Positions 10,521 through 64,000 of a stretch of DNA of 64,000 nucleotides are shown here, piece after piece; position 1 is the first letter of the stretch; each line of letters opens with the position of its first letter. The translations under genes and the position numbers were made by a program. This DNA comes from a virus. The stretch covers positions 32,001-96,000 of the IMG/VR virus record IMGVR_UViG_3300045988_173642; one strand, given 5' to 3'. Below the pieces are notes generated by a model that saw only the letters and a list, made by a program, of their open reading frames with translations, was not told the origin of the DNA and ran no database searches.

Positions 10521-11117
10521 CTATTTTTTAGTTGTTTCACCCTCTGTTGGTAGAATATAATTCCCATTCATTCCGCAAGCAAAAGCATAGAGCGGCTTGA
10601 ACGTCTTCCAGTCAACGCCAGCCACCAACCATTGCCCCGTGTAGATTTCTGGCATGATGCCGAATGAGAACGATGCGGGGTCGATGCTGCGCACCTCTAC
10701 CATGAGTTGCGCGTCTTCCGCAAACTTTCGCCCTGTGACGGGACAAACGCCCGTGCGCTTCACTTCCATCAACCAGGAGATGAGTTGCAAGCAATGTTGC
10801 GTGAGGTCGTCGGTGGCCCGCTCTAATTGCGTGCCATTGAAACGGCCCAACGTCTGCGAGGAGTCTTTCAATTTGGATAAGAACCAAACTTGGTGCGACA
10901 CCTCGGCCTTGCGTGCGTCTACAAGTTCACCCGTCGTGACCACGCTTTGCAACATACAAGGCGAATGAAGAATGTTAGCATTACGGGAAAACGTATTTTC
11001 AAGGTCGATATAGCGGATGCGGAAGAAACGTTGGTCTTCCAGGCGCTCGCTCTCTGGATTGTGTGACAAAGGCTTGTAGATACTCGCCCAATGTTCAAGA
11101 ATATTGCTGATTGTCAT
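10521..11117 (-). CDS. hypothetical protein (tail-module position)
   Basis: 198-aa ORF 5 nt upstream of the next gene; no motif recognised. Confidence 0.5.
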   Translation of the reverse strand: MTISNILEHWASIYKPLSHNPESERLEDQRFFRIRYIDLENTFSRNANILHSPCMLQSVVTTGELVDARKAEVSHQVWFLSKLKDSSQTLGRFNGTQLERATDDLTQHCLQLISWLMEVKRTGVCPVTGRKFAEDAQLMVEVRSIDPASFSFGIMPEIYTGQWLVAGVDWKTFKPLYAFACGMNGNYILPTEGETTKK

Positions 11118-12891: not shown

Positions 12892-14040
12892 ATGAACATA
12901 AACATTACGCTTCCAGAAGCCTTAGACCGCGCTTCGGAACGACTACGAAAGAAGATGCTCCACTCGGTGGAACTATTGCAAAAGGCAGAGAAAATTGCGC
13001 TTAGCTATGATACTGAGCAAGGTTATTATTTAGCCTTCAGCGGCGGCAAGGATTCGCAGGCGCTTTACCACATAGCGCAATTAGCAGGCGTGAAGTTCCG
13101 GGGACACATGAACCTCACGAGCGTTGACCCTCCGGAGGTGATACGTTTCGTTAAGCTAAACTATCCAGAAGTAGAACTTATCAAGCCCAAGAAATCCATC
13201 TTTCAAATTGCGATTGAACGGCAGTACCTTCCGACGATGAGAGCTCGTTGGTGTTGCGAAGAATACAAAGAGAAGGCAGGATCGGGCAAAGTGACGCTTA
13301 TCGGCATCCGCAAAGCAGAGAGCGCACGGCGGGCGAAACGCAACGAGGTTGAAATCAGTAGTCGGAAATTCAGCGGCGACCTTGAAGCGCTGGAGGCCTA
13401 CAGGCAGGAACAACGCGCAAAACGCGCACGGCTACAGTCAAAGAAAAAGGGCGTTAACATCACAAATGCCGACAAAGAAACAACCCTTGGTTGCATCCAC
13501 GGCAAAGAGAGTTTGCTCATCTCGCCCATCATCCACTGGGCGGAACAAGATGTATGGGAATTTCTCAACGACGTGGTGAGCGTGTCACATTGCGCGCTAT
13601 ACGATGAAGGTTGGCACCGCATCGGCTGCATAGGTTGTCCGATGAGTTCGTACAAGCAGAAAACACTGGAAAACGAACGCTACCCACACGTGAAACGCGG
13701 TTGGCTTCGGGCCATCAAAAGAATCCGTGATGTGGGGGGACTTCAAAAGAGAATATATCTGGTGGAACATCCGTTCGAACTGGATGCCGATGCAAAACGT
13801 CGGCAGATTGCTCCGAACGCAGGCGGCTACATCAAGCATCCAGCCCCGGAACACAGGATGGGAAAAACGTTCGGGTTTTCATCTTGCTCATCTTCTGACC
13901 GCTTGAACGATGAGCAAGAAAACGAAATAGCGGAGAACATCTACGACTGGTGGATTTCGGGAAAATCATACAAACGATGGTATGCTGAGAAATTCCAACA
14001 GATGAAATTGGATTTTAAAGAGGAAACTAACAATGGCTAA
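12892..14040 (+). CDS. PAPS-reductase-family (PP-loop ATPase) protein
   Basis: PP-loop motif FSGGKDSQ and Cys pairs (WCCEEYK, CIGCP), as in phage PAPS reductase / DndC-like proteins. Confidence 0.75.
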   Translation: MNINITLPEALDRASERLRKKMLHSVELLQKAEKIALSYDTEQGYYLAFSGGKDSQALYHIAQLAGVKFRGHMNLTSVDPPEVIRFVKLNYPEVELIKPKKSIFQIAIERQYLPTMRARWCCEEYKEKAGSGKVTLIGIRKAESARRAKRNEVEISSRKFSGDLEALEAYRQEQRAKRARLQSKKKGVNITNADKETTLGCIHGKESLLISPIIHWAEQDVWEFLNDVVSVSHCALYDEGWHRIGCIGCPMSSYKQKTLENERYPHVKRGWLRAIKRIRDVGGLQKRIYLVEHPFELDADAKRRQIAPNAGGYIKHPAPEHRMGKTFGFSSCSSSDRLNDEQENEIAENIYDWWISGKSYKRWYAEKFQQMKLDFKEETNNG

Positions 14041-14633: not shown

Positions 14634-15404
14634 ATGATAGAACTCAACAGAATTTACAACGAAAACTGCCTCGAAGGAATGAAGAAGATTCCGGACGAAA
14701 GCGTGGATTGCATTGTGTGTGACTTGCCATACGGCGCATTGAATAAAGGAAACGAAAAAGCGCAATGGGATAACGTTATCCCGACGGAACTGCTATTTCG
14801 GGAGTATTGGCGTGTAGCAAAAGCCGCCGCGCCCGTTATTCTCTTCTGCCAAGGAATGTTCACGGCGCAACTGATGATGGCAGAACGGAAAAACTGGCGA
14901 TATAACCTCGTGTGGATGAAGGACAGACCTACTGGCTTTCTCAACGCGAAGCGCATGCCTATGCGGAAACATGAGGACATCGCCGTGTTCTATCGCGCTT
15001 TGCCGACGTTCCATCCGCAAATGCAACAAGGGGTTCCATCTCATCCGCGAGGGCACAAACACGTGAAGACGAAGGGAAACGCTTGCTACGGCAGTTACGA
15101 CATAGGAATCTATTCCAAGGAAGTGACCACAGAGAAATACCCAACATCCATTATCTACTTTCCCAAAGAGAAACAACTGGGAATGCACCCAACGCAAAAA
15201 CCTGTTGCCCTTCTTCAGTATCTCATCCGCACCTACTCCAACGAGGGCGACACAATCTTAGACAACTGCATGGGGAGCGGCACTACTGCCATTGCAGCCA
15301 TCCGAGAAAAACGCAAATTCGTCGGATTTGAACTCAACAAGGAATATTACGAAAAAGCCTGCAAACGCATCCAAAAGGAACAAGCGCAACTCACGCTGTT
15401 CTAA
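14634..15404 (+). CDS. DNA methyltransferase, beta-class N4/N6 type
   Basis: Catalytic CDLPYG near the N-terminus, then TQKPVALLQYLI and DNCMGSGTTAIAA. This is the motif order typical of the N6_N4 MTase family. Confidence 0.85.
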   Translation: MIELNRIYNENCLEGMKKIPDESVDCIVCDLPYGALNKGNEKAQWDNVIPTELLFREYWRVAKAAAPVILFCQGMFTAQLMMAERKNWRYNLVWMKDRPTGFLNAKRMPMRKHEDIAVFYRALPTFHPQMQQGVPSHPRGHKHVKTKGNACYGSYDIGIYSKEVTTEKYPTSIIYFPKEKQLGMHPTQKPVALLQYLIRTYSNEGDTILDNCMGSGTTAIAAIREKRKFVGFELNKEYYEKACKRIQKEQAQLTLF

Positions 15405-15424
15405 CACACACCAACACTTAAACA

Positions 15425-15652
15425 ATGAGCAAACACGGACGAAGCAAATATTTCAATAAGATTCCGCCTTTTAAGCCCGACCCGGAACACTACACACGGA
15501 AACAACACTCCTGGAAGGCAAAAGTGGCCTACGAAACGGAGGAAGAAGCGTGGGAGTTCCTGCAACAGAATCCAAAGATGATGGCGCAGGGCTATCGGGC
15601 TTACCGATGCAGGGCGTGCCAGAGATGGCACGTGGGACACAAAGCAAACTAA
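15425..15652 (+). CDS. hypothetical small protein (CxxC...H near C-terminus)
   Basis: 75-aa ORF between the MTase and TerL, same strand. Confidence 0.4.
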   Translation: MSKHGRSKYFNKIPPFKPDPEHYTRKQHSWKAKVAYETEEEAWEFLQQNPKMMAQGYRAYRCRACQRWHVGHKAN

Positions 15653-15686
15653 GGAACGAAGAACAATTCAAAACCAAGAACAAGAG

Positions 15687-17687
15687 ATGCAACAGGCACA
15701 CAACATTTATCTAACCAAATTCCAGCAACAGTCGCTCTACATGGGGGCGAAGGATGAGCGCGTGATTGCGGCCCGCCGCGTGGGTAAGACGGACGGACTT
15801 GTGGCTCCTTACGTCTGGACGGCAAGTAACTCAATGCCTGGTATGCTCGGCGCATGGGTGGCGGTGTCGCGCCAACAGGGATTTGGCAAAACGATTCCAG
15901 GGACGATGGCCGCAATGGAGCGTATGTTTGGCTTCACGCAAGGCATTCATTTTGGATGGGGACGACCGCCGAAGCATGCGCGAGAGAGCATTTTCAAACC
16001 GAAGAACTATGACAACTACATTTGGTTTGCCAATGGTGCCGGATGGGTTCTTATTTCTCTCTCGCAGACGGCATCTGCCAACTCCTATACTTTCTCGGCG
16101 ATGGTGGGCGACGAAGCCAGATTCTTTCCTTATAAGAAGGTGACGGACGAACTGATGCCGGCACTGTCGGGTCAAACGCATCCGCTGGGCAATATCAACT
16201 TCTCAGACTACAATCCTTGGTATAAGTCGACACGCTTTCTCTCTGATGCCTCACTCACGGCGAAGGGCTCGTGGCTGGAAAAAGAAGAAGAAAAGCTGGA
16301 AAAGGAAGTAGAGATTGGCCCTTTCAAGGGAAAGACGTATCGTTGGGTGCAGGAACGCTTGGAGGAATATGCCGACAAGGTGATACGCTACAACGACCTT
16401 CTGTATAACGCGAAAAAGACAGGGCACGGAGTACACGTGGTCAACGCCGATCTGCGCACGATGATACGCGCCGTCGCACTGAAGATGATGAACCACGAAG
16501 GGCCGTTTCGCATAATGCCCAACCACGGCAAACACGTGACAAAAGGCATGGTGGAGATGGCCGTCAATTATAAGCTGGTGCCGCAAGAAGATGCCGAACT
16601 CATTTACGATTACGAATATCTGATTACGCCAGAAGAGGACTTTGAAATGCAAATGTTCCTGCGCTCAAAGAAATTCTCCGAGGACTATCTGAGAGAACTT
16701 CGCCGCGTGGCTTTCTGTGTGCGACGGGCATCATCGCTCGACAATGTGGACATCCTGGGTGAAGACTATATCCGGCAGATGAAACGTGACTTGCCCCCAT
16801 ATACCTTCGCGGTTTCAATTCTCAACGTGAAGGTGCAGAAGTCGAACGACGGTTTTTATTCAAACCTCGACATAGACCATGTTCATGGATATATCCCCGA
16901 CGAAATAGACCCTCTCACGGCCGCCAATTTTAAGACTCAGAAGGCCACGGGCATCATCAACGGCAAGCGCATCACGAGCGAGAGCTATCAGCCTGACTTC
17001 CAAGAACTCGCTGAGCGAAACGACTGCCGCATGGATGCTGACTGCATTAACGCGCTTCCGTTGTATATAGCGTTTGACTACAATGCCAATCTGAACACGC
17101 TCGTTGTTGGGCAACGGTATGAACGCGATGGCATGGATTGCTTGAACGTGATAAAGAGTTTCTACGTGAAGAACGAGCGCAAATTGCGCGAACTCATTGC
17201 GGATTTCTCCGACTATTATGCGCCGAAGCGAGCCATCAACCCCGACGTGACGTTCTTCTATGATGCCACGGCCAAGCAGGGGGCATCCTACGCTTCAACA
17301 GACGAACGCTTCTACATGACCGTGATTTCGGAACTGGAGAAACGCGGATGGAACGTCACGGCGATTGACATGGGGGCACCGGAACGCCACGATGTCAAAC
17401 ACAAGATTATTAATGAAGGCTTGGCCCACCAGTCGCCGCCGGCCATCCGCATCAACCAAACAAACAACCCAGACCTTATCATCGCCATGCAGCTCTGCGA
17501 GGTGGAAATATCTTACAGGGGATTCCACAAAGACAAATCGGGAGAGAAAAAGCCGGAGAGCGAAGATTCGGATTCTCTACCGCTCCAGCAACGAACGGAC
17601 TTCACGGATGCTTTCGACACACTGTATCTCGGCGTCAAACTTTTTCTTGGCGGATGGGGATGGGTGGTCATGCCCAGCGGAAGATAG
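15687..17687 (+). CDS. terL: terminase large subunit
   Basis: Walker A-like AARRVGKTDG, Walker B-like MVGDEARFF, 666 aa with a nuclease-sized C-terminal half. Confidence 0.85.
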   Translation: MQQAHNIYLTKFQQQSLYMGAKDERVIAARRVGKTDGLVAPYVWTASNSMPGMLGAWVAVSRQQGFGKTIPGTMAAMERMFGFTQGIHFGWGRPPKHARESIFKPKNYDNYIWFANGAGWVLISLSQTASANSYTFSAMVGDEARFFPYKKVTDELMPALSGQTHPLGNINFSDYNPWYKSTRFLSDASLTAKGSWLEKEEEKLEKEVEIGPFKGKTYRWVQERLEEYADKVIRYNDLLYNAKKTGHGVHVVNADLRTMIRAVALKMMNHEGPFRIMPNHGKHVTKGMVEMAVNYKLVPQEDAELIYDYEYLITPEEDFEMQMFLRSKKFSEDYLRELRRVAFCVRRASSLDNVDILGEDYIRQMKRDLPPYTFAVSILNVKVQKSNDGFYSNLDIDHVHGYIPDEIDPLTAANFKTQKATGIINGKRITSESYQPDFQELAERNDCRMDADCINALPLYIAFDYNANLNTLVVGQRYERDGMDCLNVIKSFYVKNERKLRELIADFSDYYAPKRAINPDVTFFYDATAKQGASYASTDERFYMTVISELEKRGWNVTAIDMGAPERHDVKHKIINEGLAHQSPPAIRINQTNNPDLIIAMQLCEVEISYRGFHKDKSGEKKPESEDSDSLPLQQRTDFTDAFDTLYLGVKLFLGGWGWVVMPSGR

Positions 17688-30520: not shown

Positions 30521-30528
30521 CAAAGATA
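30521..30528 (-). promoter_or_regulatory. Bacteroidota-type -7 promoter box TATCTTTG
   Basis: Matches the TAnnTTTG consensus, 30 nt upstream of the ATG at 30491. Confidence 0.5.
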
Positions 30529-30626
30529 CAAAGAAACTTTGTCAATCAAAGACTATTTCAAATTTTAACACTATTCAATACGGATATTCAAAGTTGGATA
30601 ATACAATAACTAAAATTAAAAACATA

Positions 30627-36806: not shown

Positions 36807-37679
36807 TTATTCTGGCATACTTTCCAGTAATTCGATGGTGAACTGCTTATAGTCCAATCCAACGCGACTATAAGGCGCATAGGTAAATATATCCTCATTT
36901 AACGCCTGCGCTTCCACCATCTTTGTATCACGGCGTGTATAAGAATCAAACATATAGTCGTTGAACTTGCCACCGAGGTATTGTTTAAACTGCTTCGTCG
37001 CATTCGTCTGGTCGTTGCTCATGACCATCAATAAGCCGCGAACCTCCAAGTAAGGGTTCAAATCTTCACGTGTCTCACTGACCGCCGCAATGATGTCGGC
37101 AATGCCCTTCGTTGCCAACATCTCCAGCTGCACGGGCAATACCACGCTCGAAGCGGCCGTTAAGGCATTAAACGTCAACAGAGACATGGCTGGCGGGCAG
37201 TCAATCAAAATGTAGTCAAAGGCATCCAACGCATGGGTAACGCCCTCTCCTGCCAGTTCGTTGCCTTTCATTTCCTTCAGCGGCCGGGAAAGGATTTTAC
37301 AAAGGGCTTTTCTGGGTACGGACATTTGATTCAAAAACGGGTCAATGCCAATCAGTTTTCCACTCGCTGGCGCAAGATAGATGCCTTCACGCATTTGGTA
37401 AACAGGTAACTGACCCTGCTGCACAATTGCATCATAAACCGTTGGTAAATCCGCACTCTGCATCTCGCTCCAGCCAAACAGGAAGGAGACACAAGCCTGC
37501 GGGTCAAGATCAATAATTAAAACACGTGGAAGACAGGATGACCCGTCGGCGTTCTTGCCAAAATATCCCTTGCCAAATCTTCTGAGGCCCGTTGCAAGGC
37601 TTTGCACCGTTGTCGTCTTGCCCACCCCACCCTTGTGGTTGACAAAGGCAAGCACTTCTTTTAATCGCTTAGTTTCCAT
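36807..37679 (-). CDS. parA: ParA-family partition ATPase
   Basis: Deviant Walker A VNHKGGVGKTTT, DLDPQ, and a later IDCPP motif. Confidence 0.85.
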   Translation of the reverse strand: METKRLKEVLAFVNHKGGVGKTTTVQSLATGLRRFGKGYFGKNADGSSCLPRVLIIDLDPQACVSFLFGWSEMQSADLPTVYDAIVQQGQLPVYQMREGIYLAPASGKLIGIDPFLNQMSVPRKALCKILSRPLKEMKGNELAGEGVTHALDAFDYILIDCPPAMSLLTFNALTAASSVVLPVQLEMLATKGIADIIAAVSETREDLNPYLEVRGLLMVMSNDQTNATKQFKQYLGGKFNDYMFDSYTRRDTKMVEAQALNEDIFTYAPYSRVGLDYKQFTIELLESMPE

Positions 37680-37689
37680 TTTTCGCTTA

Positions 37690-38010
37690 ATGTTAGTGTT
37701 CTTTTAAATGTTTGTTCATTGATTTGTTGAAACAAATAAACGAACAAATAAACAAATAAATGAACGAATGTTTGTTTAAACAATTCAACAAAAATATGAT
37801 TGAATAATTAAATAGCCGATTTACAGACCATTAATCATTATTGTTGTCTCATTTCGATTACAAATTTAAATATTATAATTCATTTGAGCAAATAAATTCA
37901 TGAATATTTGTTTGATTGTTTGTTTATTTAGTTGTATGTTTGTTGAAACAATTAAATAAATAAATAATTAAACAAATAAACAAACGAATAAATGAATGTT
38001 TGTTTGCTTG
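37690..38010. repeat. AT-rich AAAC(A/G)AA-type repeat region upstream of parA (candidate centromere/operator)
   Basis: Two ~85-bp degenerate direct repeats sharing TTTGTTGAAACAA (37723, 37938) and AAACAAATAAAC...AATAAATGAA..TGTTTGTTT. Palindrome TTGTTTAAACAA. Confidence 0.4.
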
Positions 38011-48750: not shown

Positions 48751-48862
48751 CAAAGATATAAAGATATATTTATATCGCCAAAGATAAAACAAAGAAATAT
48801 TTGAGTTTAACACCTATTAATATAAATATATCTTCATATTTGGTTTTTTACCCGTATCTTTG
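48751..48862. promoter_or_regulatory. divergent promoter/operator region
   Basis: Minus-strand TATCTTTG boxes (complement of 48751-48758 and 48779-48786) and a plus-strand TATCTTTG at 48855-48862. Perfect 15-bp inverted repeat AAGATATATTTATAT (48761-48775) / ATATAAATATATCTT (48820-48834). Confidence 0.55.
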
Positions 48863-54194: not shown

Positions 54195-57100
54195 TTAGAT
54201 TTGCAATTGGAAATCGTAAGAGGCTCCATCGTCTTTCTGCTTCCACGTGAGTTTTCCAGTCTTGTCTTGTCGGCCAGAGGTGAAGTGATAGAGGCGTTCA
54301 AAATAGGCGACATAGTCGGGCGTTGTGCCCATGTCTGGCGTGATGATGGTGGTGTCAGTGGGGTGTACCCCATTGTTGACGGCTGCATACCATCCGTCTG
54401 GAATCAATTCGCCCGTCGGCAAGTCTTGCGCCAGTTGGGCGTTTTGGTAATAAAGACCAAGCTGCTCAGGCGGCGTGTTGGAACTCGTGCCGCCATACCA
54501 ATAGACCACGGCGGTGTCGGTCTTCGTCTGTTTTGGGAAAAACTGATAATAGGGTAGGGCATCTGGGTTGCCAATGTAAGCCACGGCCAACCAAACGTCA
54601 TAGGCATTGTTGACGCTGATGATTTTCAAGCGCGAGATGGGAAAATAGGCCGCAGTGGTGGTGATTTTGTCAAGGCCGTTGGGGCCGAGATTATACATCT
54701 TCTGTCCGTCTTTACTGTAGAACTCCAAGATAGCACAACCGTCGGCATCTACGCCCACTTTGATATTTGGGAAAGCCAACGAGCCAAACATCTCTACCAC
54801 GCCATCATGCACCTCTACGTGGCTGTCGTTGCCGTCAATGCGCATATTGCCGTTGATGACGCTGAATTTATTGCCCGACCAGATGTCGCCCTGGCGATTG
54901 ACGCGCATAACGGCATCGGCAGGTGTTGCCCCACCAAACCAAAGCGGATATTCCATGTCTGTGCCGCCGCCAAAAGCACCGTAGGGCGTGCCGTTTTCGT
55001 CAGTGATCTGAATTTGACTGACCTGCAAGAATTGGATAAAGGCCGTCATGATGTCGGCGAAGGAGGTGCGCAGGGGGCGCAGGTCATTGATAGGTTCCCA
55101 GAAGTCGTTGCCCGTTCCAAAAGGTTTATTCGCTGACTCAGACAGGATGCCATTGTGCGAAGGGCGGGCGAGATACCATTTCGGCGTGCCGCTCTTGAGG
55201 TCAGTCACACTGACTTCGTCGAGATAGCGGTTGCCGTCGGGGGCCGTGGTGTCGCCACTATCGTTGCGATAGAGCACGCCCGCTTCCCATTCTCCGCGAC
55301 GCACTGTCACGCCAGTATATCCGCGTGGGCCTGGGGCACCAGGGGCGCCAGTGTCGCCCTTCGCGCCGTTTTGCCCGTCTTCGCCTTCGCGGTTTTGCGC
55401 GATGGTGGCGGTGGCGGTGGCGGTGCCGTAGTCCGTGACAAGCGTGAAGGTCATGAAAGCATCCTCAGGCGTTGCGCCGTCCACTTCCACGCCCACGAAG
55501 CCTTTCAGCGTGACGTGGTAGGTCAGGCTCTTACCATCGGCGGCAACAACGGCCGTGTACGTCAGTTCAACAGGCGTGGTGGCGTCGCCCGTTCCATAAG
55601 TGGCCTTTCCGCTACGCACATCGAGCGGCTGCGTGCCGGAAAACACTTGTGCCGTGATGTCGAAAGAGATGTCATCGGGGGCGGCCGTATCGTACCAGTC
55701 CGAGATGGCCACACTGATGATGTTCTTATTCAGCACAACGGTCAAGGCCGTGGGGTCGGCAGCATGGAAGGCCACGTTGCTCACGCCATAGGTACCATCG
55801 GAATAAGTGTAGAGCCATTGTTGCCACACCACGCGATTGGAAGGCGAAGGCGTCAGCGGTTCTGTCTGCCATTCGCCTTTGACGTAGGAGAGGTGGTCTT
55901 CAGCAACGCGGATGCCGTCGGGCAGGATTTCCACGGCAGGTGTGGAGAGGAAATAGAGCTGCTGCGTCACGATGGAGGGAACGCGGTCGAACTGGTCGAC
56001 CATGCCCCACATATAGATGTTGCCCGTGGCTATACCTTCGCCCTCCAGTTCTTTGAGCGCTTCGACAAACTCCTTCTTCTCTTTGTCCCAAACACGCTGC
56101 AACATTGTGAAGCCGTTGAGCCAGCCGATGATGAGCTGCATGTTGTCTTGCGTGTACGTCCAATTGGTCATGCCGGCCAAGTGCAGCTGATAAGTCGTCG
56201 TGGTCAAGCAAGAGCGTTGGCGCGTGCTGTCGGTCTCATTGGCATAGCAGGCAAAGTGCATCGCTGGCTGCGGATGTGATTCATCCGTCCATCGGTTGCG
56301 GTCTTCCGCAGGGAGGTCGGCACAGGTGGCGGCACGCAGTTCATAGCGGAAGAACTGGTTGAGGGCTGGCGTGCCATCCGCTGCCGTCTGCTCCTTAATT
56401 GGGGCAGGCAACGTGGCTGGCGTATAAATTTCTTTTACGCGAAAATAGATGGTCGTGAAGCCTGCGAAATGGAAGTTGCCATCGTGAGGGTCAGAGGTGG
56501 AGAGGTCGTTGCGGCGGTTGGTGAAATGAAACACACCCTGGCATTTGTCGTTGACGGCCACGGCACCCACTTCCCCCGTTTCCAATTTCAATTGCACCAC
56601 GCCTTCGAGCGAAGTAAATCCGAGCGCGGAGAGCGCTTCATCGGCACCCGTCCACACCTGCTGGATGATACCGCCGCCCTGCGTCTGCCATTTATTCCCA
56701 ACTGTGATGGTCGTGCGGTTGAAACGCAGTTCGGGCACCTCCAGGAATGACCTTGCAACGATGCCTTCAAATTCAGCATTGCCGTAGAAGTCGACCTTCG
56801 CGCCTTCAACGCCTTTGTTGAACGTACCGACCGTCAAATCGCCATGCAACGTTGTCGGTCGTCGTTTCTCTGGCGTTCCAACCGTCAGAGCGCCCTCCAC
56901 GAGTGCATCCCCGTGGATGACCGTGTTGCCGAAGATGTCGGCCGCGCCGTTGACCTTCAGGTCGTGCATGGCGAGGTTGAAGGGCGTTTCGTCGTCGTGG
57001 CGCTTCGAGAGCGCATTGTCGTCCATGAGCTTCGGCGTGACGATTTTCGTGGCATCGTCTAAGGGGGTGTCGGCATCCCCGATGCCCGTTATCTCGCCCT

Positions 57101-57722
57101 GCTGTCCTTCAAACGTGATGCGGCCGCCGGAAACAATCTTCAGCGTGCTAACGAAGAGGTCGCGGAACACCGTGCCTGCCTTCATCGTGAGGTCTTTGAG
57201 GAACGTCAAAGTTTGGTCGAAAACATCATAGCGATACCAGTCTGTTTCTGCTGGCCCCGCGTTGATGGCTTCATCCGAAGAAAGGTAGCCCGACACGATG
57301 CGCTGCCGCCAGACGCGCTTCTCTGTGCCGTTTTCGCCAGAGGAGGAGAGAATGCCTTGCAGGAAGATATAGTAATACTCCTCTGAGCCTATTTGCTGCT
57401 CTTCGGCGTTCCGTCCGTAGATGTCAATTTCCTCAGAGGGGAACACGATGTTAGCAGCGTTGCCAACGGATTCTGTGCGCGGAATGGCGGCATAGACATA
57501 TTTTTCTGTGTGTGTGTTGAACACTGTCGGAGAGGCTTGCAGTCGCCAGCGGCGGTAATTATGCCCGGCATCATAGTCGATGATGCCTTTGACGTACACA
57601 AGAATTTGCGCATTACCGACACACGAGGCCTGCACGTAGTCGGGCATGGCCAGGGCGTTGCGTTCGATGAAGAGCGCGTCGGGCGAAATCCAATAATCTG
57701 TGGTCGTTGCTTTCGTTGTCAT
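54195..57722 (-). CDS. tail fibre / baseplate-distal protein with collagen-like Gly-X-Y stretch
   Basis: 1175 aa, beta-rich, with GEDGQNGAKGDTGAPGAPGPRGYTG. Confidence 0.7.
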   Translation of the reverse strand: MTTKATTTDYWISPDALFIERNALAMPDYVQASCVGNAQILVYVKGIIDYDAGHNYRRWRLQASPTVFNTHTEKYVYAAIPRTESVGNAANIVFPSEEIDIYGRNAEEQQIGSEEYYYIFLQGILSSSGENGTEKRVWRQRIVSGYLSSDEAINAGPAETDWYRYDVFDQTLTFLKDLTMKAGTVFRDLFVSTLKIVSGGRITFEGQQGEITGIGDADTPLDDATKIVTPKLMDDNALSKRHDDETPFNLAMHDLKVNGAADIFGNTVIHGDALVEGALTVGTPEKRRPTTLHGDLTVGTFNKGVEGAKVDFYGNAEFEGIVARSFLEVPELRFNRTTITVGNKWQTQGGGIIQQVWTGADEALSALGFTSLEGVVQLKLETGEVGAVAVNDKCQGVFHFTNRRNDLSTSDPHDGNFHFAGFTTIYFRVKEIYTPATLPAPIKEQTAADGTPALNQFFRYELRAATCADLPAEDRNRWTDESHPQPAMHFACYANETDSTRQRSCLTTTTYQLHLAGMTNWTYTQDNMQLIIGWLNGFTMLQRVWDKEKKEFVEALKELEGEGIATGNIYMWGMVDQFDRVPSIVTQQLYFLSTPAVEILPDGIRVAEDHLSYVKGEWQTEPLTPSPSNRVVWQQWLYTYSDGTYGVSNVAFHAADPTALTVVLNKNIISVAISDWYDTAAPDDISFDITAQVFSGTQPLDVRSGKATYGTGDATTPVELTYTAVVAADGKSLTYHVTLKGFVGVEVDGATPEDAFMTFTLVTDYGTATATATIAQNREGEDGQNGAKGDTGAPGAPGPRGYTGVTVRRGEWEAGVLYRNDSGDTTAPDGNRYLDEVSVTDLKSGTPKWYLARPSHNGILSESANKPFGTGNDFWEPINDLRPLRTSFADIMTAFIQFLQVSQIQITDENGTPYGAFGGGTDMEYPLWFGGATPADAVMRVNRQGDIWSGNKFSVINGNMRIDGNDSHVEVHDGVVEMFGSLAFPNIKVGVDADGCAILEFYSKDGQKMYNLGPNGLDKITTTAAYFPISRLKIISVNNAYDVWLAVAYIGNPDALPYYQFFPKQTKTDTAVVYWYGGTSSNTPPEQLGLYYQNAQLAQDLPTGELIPDGWYAAVNNGVHPTDTTIITPDMGTTPDYVAYFERLYHFTSGRQDKTGKLTWKQKDDGASYDFQLQI

Positions 57723-58611: not shown

Positions 58612-59066
58612 GCCTCTTCTATCTTGAAGGCCGGTTTGGCCAATGCCTTGCAGCGTTCGGCAAAGGCTGTCACTTGCTCCAGGTCGGTTGTGTCACCAAG
58701 CAATGCCTTGCGGTGAGCGCACAACTCTTCTGCATAAGAATATCGAGCGCCAATGAGATAAGCGGCCAAGGTATGATAATCTGAGATGCGGTACACGGCC
58801 ACAAGTTCTTTGATGAATGCCGCGTCAAGACTGTCAAATAAGCCCTGCTGATAAATGGTCTGCAGCAATGTCTGTGCCGTCATTCGTCCTTCATGCGAAA
58901 TGGCCAGTGTGGTGCAACGAACGCGCTGCTCTCCTGCATCATTCTTATAAGATGAAGGGGAGAGGTTGATGGTCAAGAACTCCGTGTTCTTGGAATAAGA
59001 GCGAACGATGTGGCGGGGATTTTCCGTCAAATCTTCGCATTGGCGAAGGGGAATTTTTTCTCTCAT
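58608..59066 (-). CDS. hypothetical protein (DGR-linked accessory ORF)
   Basis: 152-aa ORF with 4-nt ATGA overlaps with both the RT stop and the next ORF start. Confidence 0.5.
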   Translation of the reverse strand: MREKIPLRQCEDLTENPRHIVRSYSKNTEFLTINLSPSSYKNDAGEQRVRCTTLAISHEGRMTAQTLLQTIYQQGLFDSLDAAFIKELVAVYRISDYHTLAAYLIGARYSYAEELCAHRKALLGDTTDLEQVTAFAERCKALAKPAFKIEEA

Positions 59067-60538
59067 AAAATAGATGTTTGAATCATTTTACATTTGTTTC
59101 GCAAACGAATCCGCTCAAAATGGCCATGAATGTAAAAGAACTCGTAGAAGACATGTTCAAAAATAGATAGTGTCGTTTTACGTAAGAGGTAAGACCTTTT
59201 ATTCTTGAAAAAACCGAGGTACGAGTTGATGACTTGTTCCATGCGACGAAGGTCGCACAAGGATATAATGGATTTTTCGCGCAACATTTGGTTGAATCCA
59301 AAAACGCGCTCACGGAAACGAGCAACGGTGCGGCTGGACAGGTATATACGATAGTAACGGATGTAGGCTCCAACAAACATAACACCATGTGAAGCTAATT
59401 GAAAATGATATTTGGTGACGTGAAGCGTAATACCAAGTTCAGACGACAGAAACAAGCGAGCGTCAATGATGAAGGCTTTTAAAGCAGACTTGCTGATGCA
59501 AATGACAACAAAATCATCTACAAAACGCGTGTAGTAGACCTCAAATCCACGGAGTTTGAACCATTGAATTACGAAATCATCAAAGAATGACATAAGGAAA
59601 TTCACGAACACTTGCGTTGTGATATTCCCAATTGGCATTCCGAAGGCAACATCGCTGCCGAAAAGCGACTTATGGCGCTCAATATGCTTGTGCCATTCAT
59701 CTGGCGATGTGTTGAACACACAATTTTGCTCGGGACAATGAAACACGATGGTTTTGGATGCGGCGAACAATTGTTTCAAGTATTGGCCTTTGTATTGTTC
59801 GCGGATGAACGGTTCCAGTTTTGACCATAATATACGCTTGTCTATCGACATGAAGAACGAGACGATGTCGCCCTTAAACACCCATGCAGGGCGGCTATAA
59901 TTGCAAGTTGCCTTCTTGATGTTGTCATATACGGCCTTCTGAGCCGCAAGGGTGCCAAATCCTTTTCGGCAATTGAATGACACATTACCTTGTTCAATAA
60001 AACGCCGCTCAAAATACGGATTGAGAAAAAGAATAATGAAATGATGAACGATGCGATCGCGAAAGCAAGCCGCAAAAACCTCTCTATATTTCGGGTATTT
60101 CACAAGGAAACACGTGCTGACGCCTGGCTTATATGCTCCAGTATATAATTCATGTGCCAATGCTGGCAAATCATGTTCGGCTATCTCGCAATAGTCGATA
60201 CATGCACGGCTGGTGCGTTTACGCTGGCAACAATCGTCAAAAGCAAAAAGCACAAGATCAAGAAAGTCGGTAGGAATATCAAAAGCGACGACAGGACGAA
60301 CCACAAACCCGTTGTACTTATTGTTGTTGTTGATGTTGCCATTGCCGAAGTTGCTGTTCCAACTGTTGTTGCGGTTATACTCCGTGGCGCTCCATCGGTT
60401 GGCCTGAACGTTTACTTTGGGCATTGAAATAGCATAACCACTCCAGACATTTTCATACGAACCATTGCCGTATGAACATAAATCTAAATAGGTATGCCCA
60501 CCTTTTAACAGTCCTCTCGGCTCTCTGTCACAATTCAT
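59063..60538 (-). CDS. DGR reverse transcriptase (long ORF; its first ~95 codons read through the TR; possible true start GTG at 60253)
   Basis: RT motifs FRDRIVHHF, GFGT, GDIVSFFMSID, FGMPIGNITTQVFVN, YTRFVDDFVV. The TR is immediately 5'. Confidence 0.85.
   Translation of the reverse strand: MNCDREPRGLLKGGHTYLDLCSYGNGSYENVWSGYAISMPKVNVQANRWSATEYNRNNSWNSNFGNGNINNNNKYNGFVVRPVVAFDIPTDFLDLVLFAFDDCCQRKRTSRACIDYCEIAEHDLPALAHELYTGAYKPGVSTCFLVKYPKYREVFAACFRDRIVHHFIILFLNPYFERRFIEQGNVSFNCRKGFGTLAAQKAVYDNIKKATCNYSRPAWVFKGDIVSFFMSIDKRILWSKLEPFIREQYKGQYLKQLFAASKTIVFHCPEQNCVFNTSPDEWHKHIERHKSLFGSDVAFGMPIGNITTQVFVNFLMSFFDDFVIQWFKLRGFEVYYTRFVDDFVVICISKSALKAFIIDARLFLSSELGITLHVTKYHFQLASHGVMFVGAYIRYYRIYLSSRTVARFRERVFGFNQMLREKSIISLCDLRRMEQVINSYLGFFKNKRSYLLRKTTLSIFEHVFYEFFYIHGHFERIRLRNKCKMIQTSIL
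60281..60407 (-). repeat. DGR template repeat (TR)
   Basis: 127 bp, 114/127 identical to 61179-61305. All 13 mismatches are at TR adenines on the coding strand. Confidence 0.9.
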
Positions 60539-60562
60539 AAGACAAGTGATTTAAATGATTAT

Positions 60563-61024
60563 TTAAGCACTTACAGAATTACTACCTTGCGAAAATCTGA
60601 CCAGAGAAGATGCGCGCCATGCTGAAACCTGTAAGGAACAGGAAGCGACGAGCGACTTAATCTTCTTAAAATCATCATTACTGATGCAGCCCAATGTCTT
60701 CATGATGCAAATAATAGATTTAATAGCATCTATATGAGCTGCAGCAATAGTCAGCTGCGGCACTCGTGAATACATATCAGCAAATGCAATAGACAAACTC
60801 ACCAATAAACCCGCGCATTCTGAATACATCGGATTGACCACAGGACGATATTTGACTGGACACGTCTTGTTGATTTGCGCCAAGACGAGATACAATTGCT
60901 GAGAATCGCGAAACACCTGCTGCTGATGGATGGTCCGAACTTTCTCTTTCTTGAGCTTTTTACTTCTTTCTTTTTGTTCTGTTGTTATTTGTATATATTG
61001 TGGTTCTTTGTTGTCATTTACCAT
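60563..61024 (-). CDS. avd: Avd-like DGR accessory protein
   Basis: 153-aa predicted helical, basic ORF positioned between VR and TR, as in characterised DGRs. Confidence 0.55.
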   Translation of the reverse strand: MVNDNKEPQYIQITTEQKERSKKLKKEKVRTIHQQQVFRDSQQLYLVLAQINKTCPVKYRPVVNPMYSECAGLLVSLSIAFADMYSRVPQLTIAAAHIDAIKSIICIMKTLGCISNDDFKKIKSLVASCSLQVSAWRASSLVRFSQGSNSVSA

Positions 61025-61132
61025 ACAATTTCCAATTTTATAATTAAATTGTTCACCGCAAAGTTAATAACAATTTTTGATATAAACAAAAATAATTCAG
61101 CCGGCTTACGCCGGCAATGGCATTTTCGTTGA

Positions 61133-61156
61133 GCGACGCGCTAAAAAGCGCGTCGC
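61133..61156. other. GC-rich hairpin 22 nt downstream of the VR end
   Basis: GCGACGCGC-TAAAAA-GCGCGTCGC, a perfect 9-bp stem. A second hairpin GCCGGC-TTAC-GCCGGC lies at 61100-61115. Confidence 0.8.
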
Positions 61157-61163
61157 AAAAAGG

Positions 61164-63947
61164 TTAAAGGATGAAGGGAAAAGCGACGACAGGACGAACC
61201 ACAAACCCGCTGTACTTATAGCTGTTGTAGACGTTGCCATCGCCGAAGTAGCTGCGCCAACTGTAGTAGCGGTCATACTCCGTGGCGCTCCATCGGTGGG
61301 CCTGACGAGGATTGCGCACCGGACAGCCCAGATTGGCGTCTTTCGCGCGTTTCTGCAAGTTTGCATAGAAAGGGCGGCGAGCATCCGTCGGCTCATGCGG
61401 TCGCAGTTCGTTGCCTTCGTCGGAAAAATCCGCCGTTGGCGTACCAGTGTCAGATGGCGTCAGCGCACGGCTATTGCGGAAGAAAATATACAGACGGAAC
61501 ATATCACCGCTGCCATGCAGATACCATTTCCCTTTTTCAAACCACGGCGAAAGGCCGTCAATGGGCTTGCCGCCATTGCTCGGCTCGAACAGGGAACAAG
61601 CGTAGGCGGCAGGATAGGCTAACTGACGCCATCGTTTGTCGCCGCCGATATTTCCAAGCGCCACGCAGAGATCGGCCAGCTCTTCCATCGTTTCTGGAAT
61701 GATATGGTCGCGTACTGCGGGAAGGTAGTCGAAGATGGTGTGACCATCGCTATCTGTCAACAGTCCTTCCCCGACATATTGTGTCAGAATACGATTGGCA
61801 TGTGCCACGATTGAGGCGGTGTCCTTTTTGCCATCCCATCTGTTGGGCGCAGTATTACCTTCATAGACCTTGAATCCGTCACTTTCGTTATCATCATAAG
61901 CCTGCAAGTCTTTGATGTAATACGTTTTTTCGCCTTTTTCGTCCACCATACCAACATCTGTACAATCATTACAAGCGGGGATATTCGTCAAATCGTCATC
62001 AGAGACGGATAATGCTTCAGCAATCACCTTGCGTTCGTCGGGTGTAAATCCCAATTCACCAGTGCCTTGCGGATAAATACCCCATGAAAACTCACTGATG
62101 GAGTTAGCCTTATCTGAGGACGTAATGGTCAGTTCTTCCACGTTTTCGATCAACACTTCATACAGTGTTTTGCCCGAATTATATTGCGCCGAGATTTCTT
62201 CATCCTGCAAATATTCGTTCAAAAGATTCGTTGGTAGGTCGGCATAAGGCGTCACCTTATATACCCAGCCAATAACCTTTTTACCCGGATATAACACGGA
62301 ATCAAACTCACCATTATAGTAAGCGAAATCGCCTAATTTCGGAATGCGGTTGAAAAGTTTCAACACCACTGATGTGCTAAGCGATTTTCCTCCAATCAAG
62401 GTAGCTGTAACAGTCAACGTCGCAGTTGGGTTATTACTTTCCTCGCCGACCGATGGCGCATGCAACACGCCAGTCTCTGCATCCACCGTCACATTAAAAT
62501 CATTCTCAGAGATAGACCACCTTAAATCCGTGAAGTTGTTGGCCATCGTTGGCAACACGGAACATTGGTAAGGATAATCTCCTGGTTCGGCAATAACAAA
62601 GCGTTGCGTAATGATATTCAAGCCTGTCACGCTGCGCAAAGAATAAGTGATATACAAATCATTATTCTCAGAGTCGATTTCGCCGAACTTGCGCAACAAG
62701 GCGAGTTTCAATTCTGCATCCACATTCTGCCCTTCTGTCACGGCAATTCGTCCATACAAAGAGCAATATAGAATCCCAGTTATATAGAATAATACGCTTG
62801 GCGCAACATCTGTCCAATCAATTCCATCTATGCGCAACGTGCTCAACTTTGCGCCAGCCTCACTACATCCACGCACCAAAGAGCGCGTGTCAAAACCGCA
62901 ATTGAGGGCGGTGATCGAAGTTAAACGAGCGTAGCCATCCAGCGTGAGCGTCTGTAACTGCGGCATATCGCGCACTTCAAGTTGTGAGAGCTCCGCACCG
63001 AAGCGAGCCACGGTAAGTTGTGGTGAGGACGGCATACGCACCTGCCCGTATTTCGTTCCGCGAAGGTCGAGTGTTTGCAGTCGTGAAGCCTTAGAGAGGT
63101 TGAATGTTCCGCTGGATGTGCTAACACCATTCAGAGACAGACGCTGCAAATTGGCGGCATCTACATCTATCTGCTTCGGCGCAAACGCACTGCTACCTGC
63201 TTTAGGCTCAGCAATAAACTCCGTCATTCGGCGTCCCTGAATGGTGAAGTTATTATTGCCAACCACCATGTTACCCACGTTACCGATGGAACGATAATAG
63301 TTAGTGGCAGCAAGTCCGACTGATGAGTCGCCAGGAATCGGTGTGGAAGCAGGATTTACTGTGAAGGCATAGTGTCGCCCCGGTATCATGCGGAAATGCG
63401 GGTTGATGAGCGCACGGTCGCGCACGCCACAGGGATAGAGGTACTGATGAGGAACAAGGTCAAATGTGTATTCGCCTCCCGTGCGCCCAGAACCAGGCGT
63501 GAACTGCAAACCAGCGCTGGCGTCCACCAATCCAGTAGAACCAGTGTTCACACCACTTGAGAAGTCACCCCATGCCGCATACGAACAGACAAGAGCCAGT
63601 CGGCGTGTCATATACTGAATCTCGCTCTCCAACTGGTCGCCAATGCCCTGCGTGACGGCGAGAATACCACGCGCCTGGTTGCCGTAACTCTCATAGCCCC
63701 ACGATGCGGGCCAGTCGTATCGGATGCGCTGCTGTTCCGCCCATGCTACCTCGGCAAAGTACTTTTGAACTGAGAAGAAATACTTGTGTATACAACCGTA
63801 TGGCGTTTGGCGTTGTGTCGTTGTAAGGCCGTCTATATTCTCATTCGCCCCAACCAACGTACACATGGCCGTCAACACTTCACGCATATTGGCCGGCAAT
63901 GCCGTTTGGTCGAGCGTTTCCCATGCCGCCTCCATGACATTGAACAA
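61164..63947 (-). CDS. DGR target protein, probable receptor-binding tail fibre (LRR-like repeats, Ig-like segment, C-terminal variable lectin-fold-type domain)
   Basis: 927 aa. LRR-like LQRLSLNGV...LQTLDLRGT...LSQLEVRDMPQLQTLTLDG...LSTLRIDG. Ig-like TVDAETGVLHAP...LTVTATLIGGKS. VR within the last 50 codons. Confidence 0.8.
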   Translation of the reverse strand: MFNVMEAAWETLDQTALPANMREVLTAMCTLVGANENIDGLTTTQRQTPYGCIHKYFFSVQKYFAEVAWAEQQRIRYDWPASWGYESYGNQARGILAVTQGIGDQLESEIQYMTRRLALVCSYAAWGDFSSGVNTGSTGLVDASAGLQFTPGSGRTGGEYTFDLVPHQYLYPCGVRDRALINPHFRMIPGRHYAFTVNPASTPIPGDSSVGLAATNYYRSIGNVGNMVVGNNNFTIQGRRMTEFIAEPKAGSSAFAPKQIDVDAANLQRLSLNGVSTSSGTFNLSKASRLQTLDLRGTKYGQVRMPSSPQLTVARFGAELSQLEVRDMPQLQTLTLDGYARLTSITALNCGFDTRSLVRGCSEAGAKLSTLRIDGIDWTDVAPSVLFYITGILYCSLYGRIAVTEGQNVDAELKLALLRKFGEIDSENNDLYITYSLRSVTGLNIITQRFVIAEPGDYPYQCSVLPTMANNFTDLRWSISENDFNVTVDAETGVLHAPSVGEESNNPTATLTVTATLIGGKSLSTSVVLKLFNRIPKLGDFAYYNGEFDSVLYPGKKVIGWVYKVTPYADLPTNLLNEYLQDEEISAQYNSGKTLYEVLIENVEELTITSSDKANSISEFSWGIYPQGTGELGFTPDERKVIAEALSVSDDDLTNIPACNDCTDVGMVDEKGEKTYYIKDLQAYDDNESDGFKVYEGNTAPNRWDGKKDTASIVAHANRILTQYVGEGLLTDSDGHTIFDYLPAVRDHIIPETMEELADLCVALGNIGGDKRWRQLAYPAAYACSLFEPSNGGKPIDGLSPWFEKGKWYLHGSGDMFRLYIFFRNSRALTPSDTGTPTADFSDEGNELRPHEPTDARRPFYANLQKRAKDANLGCPVRNPRQAHRWSATEYDRYYSWRSYFGDGNVYNSYKYSGFVVRPVVAFPFIL
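61179..61305 (-). repeat. DGR variable repeat (VR) at the 3' end of the target gene
   Basis: See TR. Encodes ...HRWSATEYDRYYSWRSYFGDGNVYNSYKYSGFVVRPVVAF versus the TR-encoded ...NRWSATEYNRNNSWNSNFGNGNINNNNKYNGFVVRPVVAF. Confidence 0.9.
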
Positions 63948-64000
63948 AGCCGATGCCGTGCCTTCATAGTCCTTCTGCTTTTTCAGTCCGTCCTTCGTGT

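Follow-up and report, generated by a model that had tools for sequence, protein, structure and literature searches.

The window analysed here, a stretch of 64,000 nucleotides of viral DNA, ends on its minus strand with a short direct repeat, one copy of which closes a large open reading frame while the other lies beside a reverse transcriptase (RT) domain. The locus therefore raises the question of whether this is a working diversity-generating retroelement (DGR), and if so, which protein it diversifies and how its template is expressed. A first-pass annotation, made from the sequence alone, had described a complete DGR. All of the defining parts are present, with adenine-specific differences between template repeat (TR) and variable repeat (VR), which supports the DGR reading, although only part of the cassette is in the window, whose end cuts the target gene. 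We consider it very likely that the locus is a functional DGR of an uncultured ~95-kb long-tailed phage infecting Bacteroidales, probably Prevotella.

The two repeats were returned by a repeat finder as a 127-nt direct repeat of 90% identity, with the TR at 60281-60407 and the VR at 61179-61305, both on the minus strand. Base-by-base comparison gave 114 of 127 identical positions, and the 13 mismatches (plus-strand positions 60312, 60322, 60324, 60331, 60334, 60343, 60352, 60357, 60358, 60367, 60370, 60376 and 60400) are exactly those listed in the first-pass annotation. All 13 fall on an A of the TR coding strand. Because 38 of the 127 TR nucleotides are adenines, the probability of this occurring by chance is 2.8e-8 (hypergeometric). 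As had been reported, twelve codons are altered and the two repeats are identical over their last 31 nt; the altered codons comprise 11 for Asn and one for Ile. The VR forms the final ~42 codons of the target ahead of a terminal PFIL-stop, placing its end 4 codons from the target stop. The TR contains 11 AAC codons and has 37 of its 38 adenines in the first or second position of a codon, and just one of its codons is able to mutate to a stop. Up to 23 codons could be recoded by the DGR, corresponding to ~7e21 protein variants. No further VR was found in the 64-kb window by a scan that allowed any base at TR adenines. Because TR and VR share the same final 31 nt, IMH and IMH* are indistinguishable inside the repeat and any discrimination between them must lie downstream, an arrangement reported for some DGRs (Wu et al., PMC5758913).

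The RT ORF (59063-60538, minus strand) spans 491 codons including a leader and the TR, with the RT domain starting at ~60280. It matches RVT_1 (3.5e-12) and phrog_1423 (8.5e-60), and its best PDB match is 8ub7_A, the bRT of Bordetella phage BPP-1 (E=5e-18), ahead of Cas6-RT-Cas1 and a group II maturase. The FVDD box that had been noted is the catalytic box, contained within YTRFVDDFVV. The DGR-specific signature of RT motif 4 is [I/L/V]GxxxSQ. Here the motif reads PIGNITTQ and aligns to bRT PIGSLTSQ, with Thr in place of Ser throughout the phage family. Residues equivalent to those of bRT are retained in PKYR and PIGN..TQ, including those aligning to I181 (Ile) and R74 (Arg of the upstream PKxR), and an insertion of ~36 aa separates the segments aligning to bRT 157 and 174. 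Both RFVDDF and PIGNITTQ are conserved across the family, and the RT is under purifying selection (dN/dS ~0.1). A disrupted RT in homologues had been named in the first-pass annotation as a sign against a DGR; the ORF is intact in every relative.

Between the target and the RT, the 153-aa helical ORF that had been assigned to the Avd position (60563-61024, minus strand) encodes an accessory variability determinant, which is basic and forms a four-helix bundle. At the sequence level it matches phrog_3206, "Avd protein of DGR", weakly (E=1.4e-4), and the bAvd-like family PF22296 matches 19 of 20 family members, also weakly and below cut-off. Searching the PDB by sequence, whether with the single sequence or a profile, returned nothing meaningful, and it was fold comparison alone that worked: an AF2 model (pLDDT 83) has four helices, and Foldseek matched it to 2gsc, 4dwl (BPP-1 Avd, TM 0.84) and the Avd chains of 8ub7.

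None of 50,697 phage records was matched by the 4.9-kb cassette in a megablast search, and so relatives had to be sought via proteins. This identified 13 related cassettes beyond that of the window, each with its own A-biased TR/VR pair and an intact RT, and in 8 of the 13 every difference is at A. In the two closest relatives the counts are 10/10 and 19/19, while the 11 further cassettes include 12/12, 10/10, 9/9, 20/21, 23/23, 19/19, 12/12 and 13/14. Within the lineage of the window, the VRs of three ~95%-identical genomes differ at 21-28 of 127 sites compared with ~5% in the flanks. Close relatives have conserved TRs, and the rare non-A changes in the TRs of the three genomes reappear in the cognate VR. 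Furthermore, three genomes with identical TRs (L006, L007 and L008) differ from one another at 16-19 sites over 8,858 nt, with 12-16 of these in the 128-nt VR. Substitutions scattered outside TR-adenine positions in related genomes had been proposed as evidence against a DGR; among near-identical genomes the variation is instead almost entirely confined to the VR, at TR-adenine positions. Taken together, the A-biased relatives, the TR drift copied to the VR and the VR-restricted differences indicate, from comparison between genomes, that the DGR has been recently active.

These comparisons also bear on whether the TR could be nothing more than a gene end duplicated by an unrelated or dead RT, with an A-bias that is coincidental or ancient. 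The evidence for this genome comes purely from sequence comparison and the Avd sequence match is weak, both of which would suit such an origin. Nevertheless, 14 cassettes independently show a pattern that is adenine-specific or adenine-biased, drift in the TR is mirrored in the VR, near-identical genomes vary almost only in the VR, the RT is intact and constrained, and the TR has the codon design typical of DGRs (AAC codons, A at positions 1 and 2). We give almost no credence to an inert duplication, which the comparative results have already largely refuted.

Immediately downstream of the VR is a GC-rich hairpin (61133-61156, minus strand) with a 10-bp stem, GCGACGCGCT/AGCGCGTCGC, and the loop TTTT, which is a candidate DGR target-recognition hairpin or cruciform. 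It begins 22 nt past the end of the TR/VR homology and is absent after the TR. It is found in all relatives with differing stem sequences, three pairs being changed on both sides, and its covariation score was reached by 0 of 500 shuffles; as judged from this comparison, compensatory changes maintain the post-VR hairpin. It lacks a following T-run and was not called by a terminator scan. The inverted repeats described downstream of the VR in DGRs have a 7-10 bp stem and a 4-nt loop and are located 4-34 bp from the VR, ranges that include the stem, loop and spacing seen here, whereas the loop TTTT is unlike the GRNA consensus, which is that of proteobacterial phage DGRs (PMC3240598). A second hairpin (61100-61115, minus strand), GCCGGC-GTAA-GCCGGC followed by a T-rich tail, is terminator-like in the same scan and is probably the terminator of the target gene. 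Both hairpins are visible in the DNA fold of 61095-61166 (-23.7 kcal/mol, z=-4.8). Further along, 35 nt upstream of the avd start, is the motif TTTG-N20-TAACTTTG (61059-61090, minus strand), which we take to be a Bacteroidota-type promoter from the known Bacteroides -33/-7 consensus. It is one of 10 occurrences of TTTG-N18-21-TAnnTTTG in the window, compared with 1.3 expected; a scan for sigma-70 promoters was uninformative (5 found, 5.2 expected).

We propose that this promoter would drive an avd-TR-RT transcript, whose TR portion the RT, together with the Avd four-helix bundle, would copy into cDNA with misincorporation at template adenines. The cDNA would then replace the VR at the 3' end of the gene for a giant (~2,232-aa), putatively virion-associated protein, and the targeting would be aided by the 31 nt of invariant 3' homology together with the GC-rich hairpin that follows. 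The predicted outcome is recoding within a C-terminal, DUF1566/C-type-lectin-like ligand-binding tip, the ligand of which would most likely be a host surface receptor.

The part of the target gene in the window (61164-64000, minus strand; stop codon 61164-61166) is open at the window edge, and the orthologous targets in relatives are 2,232-2,234 aa long (2,232 aa in a relative with 97% RT identity), so the window holds just the C-terminal ~944 codons. The "927-aa ORF" of the first-pass annotation is a window-edge artefact that starts at a TTG because the window stops short of the true start; no stop is found between 63947 and 64000. The homologue of the target in Bacteroides phage BS-TP1 is the 2,187-aa gp27, with which it aligns over gp27 residues 1229-2187 (26% identity, E=7e-78). 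Scanned against Pfam and PHROG, the full-length target and its neighbours received no functional assignment, and no tail-fibre family matched the target: matches to LRR_4 are weak, and the full-length relative matches only phrog_24896, a PHROG of unknown function. An Ig-like segment is weakly suggested by faint sequence hints and context. For the tip, the Lcl_C domain (PF07603, DUF1566) matches the window protein at E=0.006, below the curated cut-off, the TR-encoded peptide at 0.005, likewise below cut-off, and 5 of 15 target homologues, the best at a sub-threshold 4e-4. A profile matches PDB 8q4e_A over the last 43 aa only (E=1.2e-3); this entry, deposited as "HbP1", is cited in the paper on the structure of Legionella Lcl (PMC11162425). 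The C-terminal 378 aa had no match in the PDB, and the AF2 model built for the final 398 aa from a 15-sequence alignment was unusable (pLDDT 45). A DUF1566/Lcl_C-like VR domain with a C-type-lectin fold is plausible.

Most characterised phage DGR targets are receptor-binding proteins, and from the weak sequence hints and the context a receptor-binding fibre is a plausible identity for this target. A 1,175-aa collagen-repeat ORF with a weak match to a tail-fibre PHROG is located three genes downstream of it, a BS-TP1 protein five genes downstream has a Baseplate_J-like structural match, and targets of ~2,000 aa were regarded as potential tail-related proteins by the BS-TP1 authors (PMC12694917). 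Against this, the PHROG matches of the target are only of unknown function and include no tail-fibre family, the tape-measure gene is ~50 kb away within the window, and the DUF1566/Lcl_C domains of Legionella Lcl bind glycosaminoglycans (PMC11162425). These observations would fit a genuine DGR that diversifies a mucus or glycan adhesin, a virion decoration or a non-structural giant instead of a receptor-binding tail fibre, which we consider rather unlikely. Whichever role applies, comparison shows the tip to be the sole fast-evolving part of a ~2,200-aa target, and this makes the target a prime candidate for the protein by which these phages recognise their host or adhere.

The first-pass annotation placed the TR just 5' of the RT domain. 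The position is correct, but the TR is in frame within the 491-codon RT ORF, preceded by a leader (60408-60538, minus strand) whose ATG at 60538 is 43 codons upstream of the TR. The leader ATG ("MNC/MNF...") is located 4-24 nt past the avd stop in 10 lineages. Across lineages, the leader contains no stops in the RT frame, compared with 3-4 and 0-3 in the other two frames, its indels are in-frame only, and pN/pS is 0.50 in the RT frame against 1.04 and 1.04 in the others, a moderate difference from non-independent pairs. The leader upstream of the TR thus shows signs of coding-type constraint. Among 27 related Bacteroidales cassettes, the TR is within the open RT frame in 21, and 18 of these have an ATG upstream of the TR. 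This TR-RT in-frame fusion across a Bacteroidales clade raises the question of how the template is expressed and selected in these DGRs.

One answer, which we regard as unlikely, is that the TR is a translated part of the RT gene here and in most Bacteroidales relatives, giving the RT an ~86-aa N-terminal extension and making the RT mRNA double as the mutagenesis template. The extension may then consist of the constrained leader plus an Asn-rich, TR-encoded "proto-VR" peptide. Better odds, though still short of even, go to translation of the RT from an internal start past the TR, such as the in-frame GTG at 60251-60253, with the open frame through leader and TR being incidental and the TR untranslated as in a textbook DGR. 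That GTG, in "...LDLVLF...", is conserved in 5 of 10 lineages of the ~95-kb phage family. Three related loci have their first ATG only past the TR despite an open frame, six others have a stop between TR and RT, and the constraint on the leader is only of the moderate kind described above. According to Wu et al. (PMC5758913), no translation of the TR takes place in vivo, published surveys treat it as untranslated, and our literature search for a statement of a translated TR returned only the "group 3" overlap class of DiGReF. The leader constraint and the prevalence of the open frame argue the other way, as do two further observations. In BS-TP1 the stretch from the end of the TR to the conserved AFEDCC contains no ATG, GTG or TTG. 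In addition, alignment to bRT suggests that the N-terminal helix of the RT starts right at the TR end (DIPTDFLDLVLFAFDDCC... compared with bRT residues before 27), and a GTG start would therefore truncate the helix. A search with RNAalifold for a counterpart of the BPP-1 spacer RNA structure, covering the TR 3' end and 170 nt downstream in 9 lineages, found no convincing conserved structure (consensus of only -12 kcal/mol, covariation term -1.5). If the TR is translated, this may couple translation with template capture, a cis-preference like that of LINE-type elements; alternatively, the extension might take part in an RT-Avd-RNA particle.

Members of the ~95-kb phage family were found in human gut samples, including those of the Hadza, and more distant relatives of the RT are in rumen and other animal-gut genomes. 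A crAss-like identity was considered for the phage and rejected because a tape-measure protein is present. The locus adds a well-supported and evidently active DGR to a large, uncultured family of Bacteroidales phages, and its natural series of VR variants is available for tropism studies. The element itself is a further DGR of the sort already described in gut Bacteroidales phages and leaves existing DGR knowledge unchanged.

The nearest described system is the DGR of BS-TP1 (PQ571274.1; gp27 target, gp26 four-helix bundle, gp25 RT), which was called by myDGR (Gut Microbes 2025, PMC12694917). Both phages have a Bacteroidales host and share the order target, avd, TR inside the RT ORF and RT, with RTs that are 43% identical and targets of similar size (2,187 aa in BS-TP1, ~2,232 aa here) that are homologous over the last ~960 aa. 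BS-TP1 also carries a TR/VR pair of its own, likewise A-biased, with a GC hairpin past the VR. However, the two show no similarity at the nucleotide level, their Avd proteins are barely alignable, the hairpins differ in stem and loop, and the present phage, with a genome of ~95 kb compared with 112 kb, is known from metagenomes alone.

The BPP-1 prototype (mtd-avd-TR-brt) likewise has the order target/VR, avd, TR and RT and adenine-specific mutagenesis, and it supplies the closest solved structure for the RT (8ub7) and the fold match for Avd (4dwl). In BPP-1, a ~140-nt untranslated spacer separates the TR from brt, whereas the TR here abuts the RT domain in frame. The BPP-1 target, Mtd, is 381 aa long and has the Mtd-type CLec fold, in contrast to ~2,232 aa with a putative DUF1566-like tip, and the ~36-aa RT insertion is a further difference. 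In both, a GC-rich inverted repeat follows the VR (PMC3240598), but the loop is GAAA in BPP-1 and TTTT here, where IMH and IMH* also cannot be told apart within the repeat.

A further comparison is with the Bacteroides uniformis phages Bacuni_F1/F2/F4 and the Legionella-type "CLec2 / DUF1566" class (Wu et al. 2018, category d). The resemblance is that of a Bacteroidales phage DGR with the order avd, TR, RT and a DUF1566-like VR scaffold, which is putative in the present element. The Bacuni RTs are 32-35% identical to that of the window, and an ORF runs through the TR directly past avd. The target of Bacuni_F1 is a 253-aa DUF1566 protein, making the one here about nine times larger, and its TR ORF is a separate one of 81 codons overlapping the RT start by 4 nt, as opposed to the in-frame fusion seen here. 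Finally, the DiGReF "group 3" overlap class also has the TR within an annotated or predicted RT ORF. That work classifies annotations only, whereas here the leader shows indirect signs of coding constraint and the fusion is common across one clade of Bacteroidales RTs.

A repeat search of the window returned a 127-nt direct repeat of 90% identity, pairing 60281-60407 with 61179-61305. On the minus (coding) strand the two copies agree at 114 of 127 positions, and all 13 mismatches correspond to adenine in the downstream copy, the template repeat (TR, 60407 to 60281), as compared with the variable repeat (VR, 61305 to 61179), which lies four codons ahead of the target gene stop. Because the TR has 38 adenines among its 127 nt, the probability of 13 of 13 mismatches falling on adenine by chance is 2.8e-8. 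Twelve codons are altered between TR and VR (11 Asn and one Ile), and the final 31 nt of the repeats are identical. The first-pass annotation had listed the same 114 matches and the same 13 plus-strand positions, all TR adenines, which our recomputation reproduced exactly, and codon comparison confirmed its 12 changed codons and invariant 31-nt 3' end. The TR contains 11 AAC codons; 37 of its 38 adenines occupy the first or second codon position, and adenine mutation could turn just one codon into a stop. The 23 recodable codons correspond to about 7e21 protein variants.

The reverse transcriptase (RT) matches RVT_1 and phrog_1423 (8.5e-60), and its best PDB match is bRT of the prototype diversity-generating retroelement (DGR) of Bordetella phage BPP-1 (8ub7_A, 5e-18), with Cas6-RT-Cas1 and a group II maturase far behind. 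When aligned to bRT, PIGNITTQ is opposite PIGSLTSQ and RFVDDF is opposite RYMDDI. Both motifs are invariant throughout the phage family, including the FVDD box singled out in the initial reading. Upstream, a 153-aa ORF (61024 to 60563, minus strand) occupies the position of the accessory variability determinant (avd). Its sequence matches to Avd are weak and a sequence search of the PDB gave no match; an AlphaFold model (pLDDT 83) consists of four helices, in keeping with the helical protein originally proposed here, and matches the folds of 2gsc, of BPP-1 Avd (4dwl, TM 0.84) and of the Avd chains in the bRT-Avd-RNA particle.

Comparison between genomes indicates that the element has been at work recently. 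In the two ~95%-identical relatives, every mismatch between a VR and its own TR falls on an adenine (10/10 and 19/19). Furthermore, the few non-adenine substitutions that set apart the three TRs (the window's and theirs), such as C18T, G99T, G105T and T45C, recur in each genome's own VR, and therefore the VR has been overwritten from the TR since the lineages split. Three genomes from different samples with identical TRs (L006, L007 and L008) differ at only 16-19 positions in 8,858 nt, 12-16 of which are inside the 128-nt VR. Eleven further cassettes show a like adenine pattern, some carrying an indel of 3 or 6 nt where AAC is repeated; indels opposite AAC are a known by-product in other DGRs (PMC5758913). 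In the related loci L011/L012 (9692-9825 versus 10558-10688) and L016 (7632-7764 versus 8574-8700), the VR exceeds the TR by one or two codons at AAC runs, and L011 has a few non-adenine TR/VR mismatches. VR substitutions away from TR adenines, or a disrupted RT in relatives, had been named as evidence against a DGR; in related genomes the VR changes are adenine-specific or adenine-biased, and the RT ORF is intact in every relative examined, with dN/dS near 0.1. The component parts, the adenine pattern and the comparison between genomes all support the DGR proposed at 59063-63947, and we hold with high confidence that the element is canonical and recently active.

The intergenic interval from the stop of the target to the start of avd (61025-61163, minus strand) contains two hairpins and a promoter motif. 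Three genomes with flanks ~5% divergent differ at only 2 of its ~140 nt, so that it is better conserved than the coding sequence around it. The first hairpin (61156 to 61133, minus) is GC rich with a 10-bp stem and TTTT loop, begins 22 nt past the end of TR/VR homology, and has no T-run after its stem in a terminator scan. The second (61115 to 61100, minus) carries a T-rich tail and is terminator-like; the stretch spanning both (61095-61166) folds at -23.7 kcal/mol (z = -4.8). The post-VR hairpin is kept across relatives with differing stem sequences, with three pairs altered on both sides, and its covariation score was reached by 0 of 500 shuffles, with slid controls much lower. This is as expected of the DGR target hairpin, which is structure-dependent and sequence-independent (PMC3240598), although the loop is TTTT here and GRNA in the published hairpins.

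The motif TTTG-N20-TAACTTTG follows at 61090 to 61059 (minus) and is of Bacteroidota type. The consensus TTTG-N18-21-TAnnTTTG, which we take to be a promoter based on the Bacteroides -33/-7 consensus, matches 10 sites in the window, compared with 1.3 in shuffled sequence (~8-fold enrichment), including 30521-30550, 37861-37892, 48751-48782 and 61059-61090. These are candidate transcription starts along the phage genome, and their enrichment hints independently at Bacteroidota as the host phylum. Among species-representative genomes, those carrying related RTs are overwhelmingly Bacteroidales, and one homologue of the target C-terminus is labelled Prevotella sp.

The target gene (64000 to 61164, minus) is cut by the window edge. 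Its frame has no stop before the TTG at 63947, up to the window end, and therefore the 927-aa ORF described initially is an edge artefact. The full-length target is 2,232 aa, about 2.4 times larger, in the two nearest relatives, which are IMG/VR contigs of 98 and 93 kb with RTs 97% and 95% identical to the one here; more remote relatives have targets of 2,232-2,234 aa. Pfam and PHROG scans gave no functional assignment, returning weak LRR_4 matches and PHROG families of unknown function. The extreme C-terminus gave sub-threshold Lcl_C/DUF1566 matches and a profile match to the last 43 residues of 8q4e_A (E=1.2e-3), a code cited in a paper on Legionella Lcl, whose DUF1566-containing C-terminal domain is called C-type-lectin-like (PMC11162425). 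Modelling of the last 398 aa reached pLDDT 45 and gave no usable fold. The initially proposed role of the target as a receptor-binding fibre, its Ig-like segment and a C-type-lectin fold of its tip are putative. In databases, the target C-terminus (P0022-P0031) and Avd (P0001-P0002) are often found on very short contigs of about 0.9-1.9 kb, which may reflect assembly breaks at a heterogeneous VR or simply short-contig assemblies.

The window also encodes a 1,862-aa tape-measure protein, and this is therefore a long-tailed phage; other products include an NAD-dependent ligase, a sliding-clamp-like processivity factor and a PAPS-reductase-like protein (12892-14040, plus; phrog_424, 9.6e-35) on the strand opposite to most window genes. 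Its closest cultured relative is the temperate Bacteroides phage BS-TP1 (PQ571274.1), for which the authors found no chromosomal prophage copies. Together with a ParA-like partition protein (36807-37679, minus; phrog_164, 3.9e-38) in this ~95-kb phage, this is consistent with plasmid-like (phage-plasmid) lysogeny. Three genes past the RT, a 1,175-aa ORF (54195-57722, minus) has a collagen Gly-X-Y run and a weak tail-fibre match; its orthologues in L006-L019 range from 1,103 to 1,551 aa, and the product appears to be a second host-interaction protein next to the DGR, evolving in modules. In some relatives, mobile elements have inserted near the cassette: IS605-type OrfB/TnpB genes flank the L016 locus on both sides (1-266, 15195-16441), one followed by a Y1 transposase, and an rve-family integrase/transposase gene is located two genes past the RT in L011/L012 (12528-13142).

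The TR was initially placed 5' of the RT domain. That position is correct, but the TR is embedded in frame within a 491-codon ORF (60538 to 59063, minus), composed of a 43-codon leader, the TR and the RT domain. An ATG (MNC/MNF...) is found 4-24 nt past the avd stop in 10/10 family lineages, and the frame through the TR is also open in BS-TP1 and MT835523. Stops are absent from the leader in the RT frame, whereas the two other frames contain 3-4 and 0-3; the leader varies in length by whole codons only (33-43) and has a pN/pS of 0.50 versus 1.04 and 1.04 in shifted frames. Of 27 related Bacteroidales cassettes in which a TR/VR pair could be detected, 21 have the TR inside the RT open frame, 18 of those with an ATG upstream of the TR. 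The 21 include chromosomal fusions in B. xylanisolvens XB1A, B. congonensis, B. acidifaciens and Palleniella muris. BS-TP1 lacks any start codon from the TR to its conserved AFEDCC, and the bRT alignment suggests that the RT N-terminal helix begins right at the TR end. These features make translation through the TR plausible. Conversely, the TR is described as untranslated in a major survey (PMC5758913), and an internal GTG (60251-60253) is a possible alternative start. A search for conserved RNA structure downstream of the TR found none. A translated TR would be the only potentially new biology of this element, and we think it unlikely to be both real and mechanistically meaningful. DGRs with a TR that overlaps the annotated RT ORF form a recognised class (DiGReF group 3, PMC3521204); in Bacuni_F1 the TR is in a separate 81-codon ORF overlapping the RT start by 4 nt, whereas here it is fused in frame.

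A megablast of the 4.9-kb cassette against 50,697 phage records found no nucleotide similarity to deposited phages. At the protein level, the BS-TP1 RT is 43% identical to the RT here, and its DGR target, gp27, is homologous to our target over ~960 aa (E=7e-78). BS-TP1 shares the gene order and likewise carries a TR/VR pair and a hairpin of its own. The paper on BS-TP1 used myDGR to call DGRs whose targets, about 2,000 aa long and unannotated, it describes as potential tail-related proteins (PMC12694917), and therefore this kind of DGR is already published. The element is a new metagenomic member of the BS-TP1-like DGRs.
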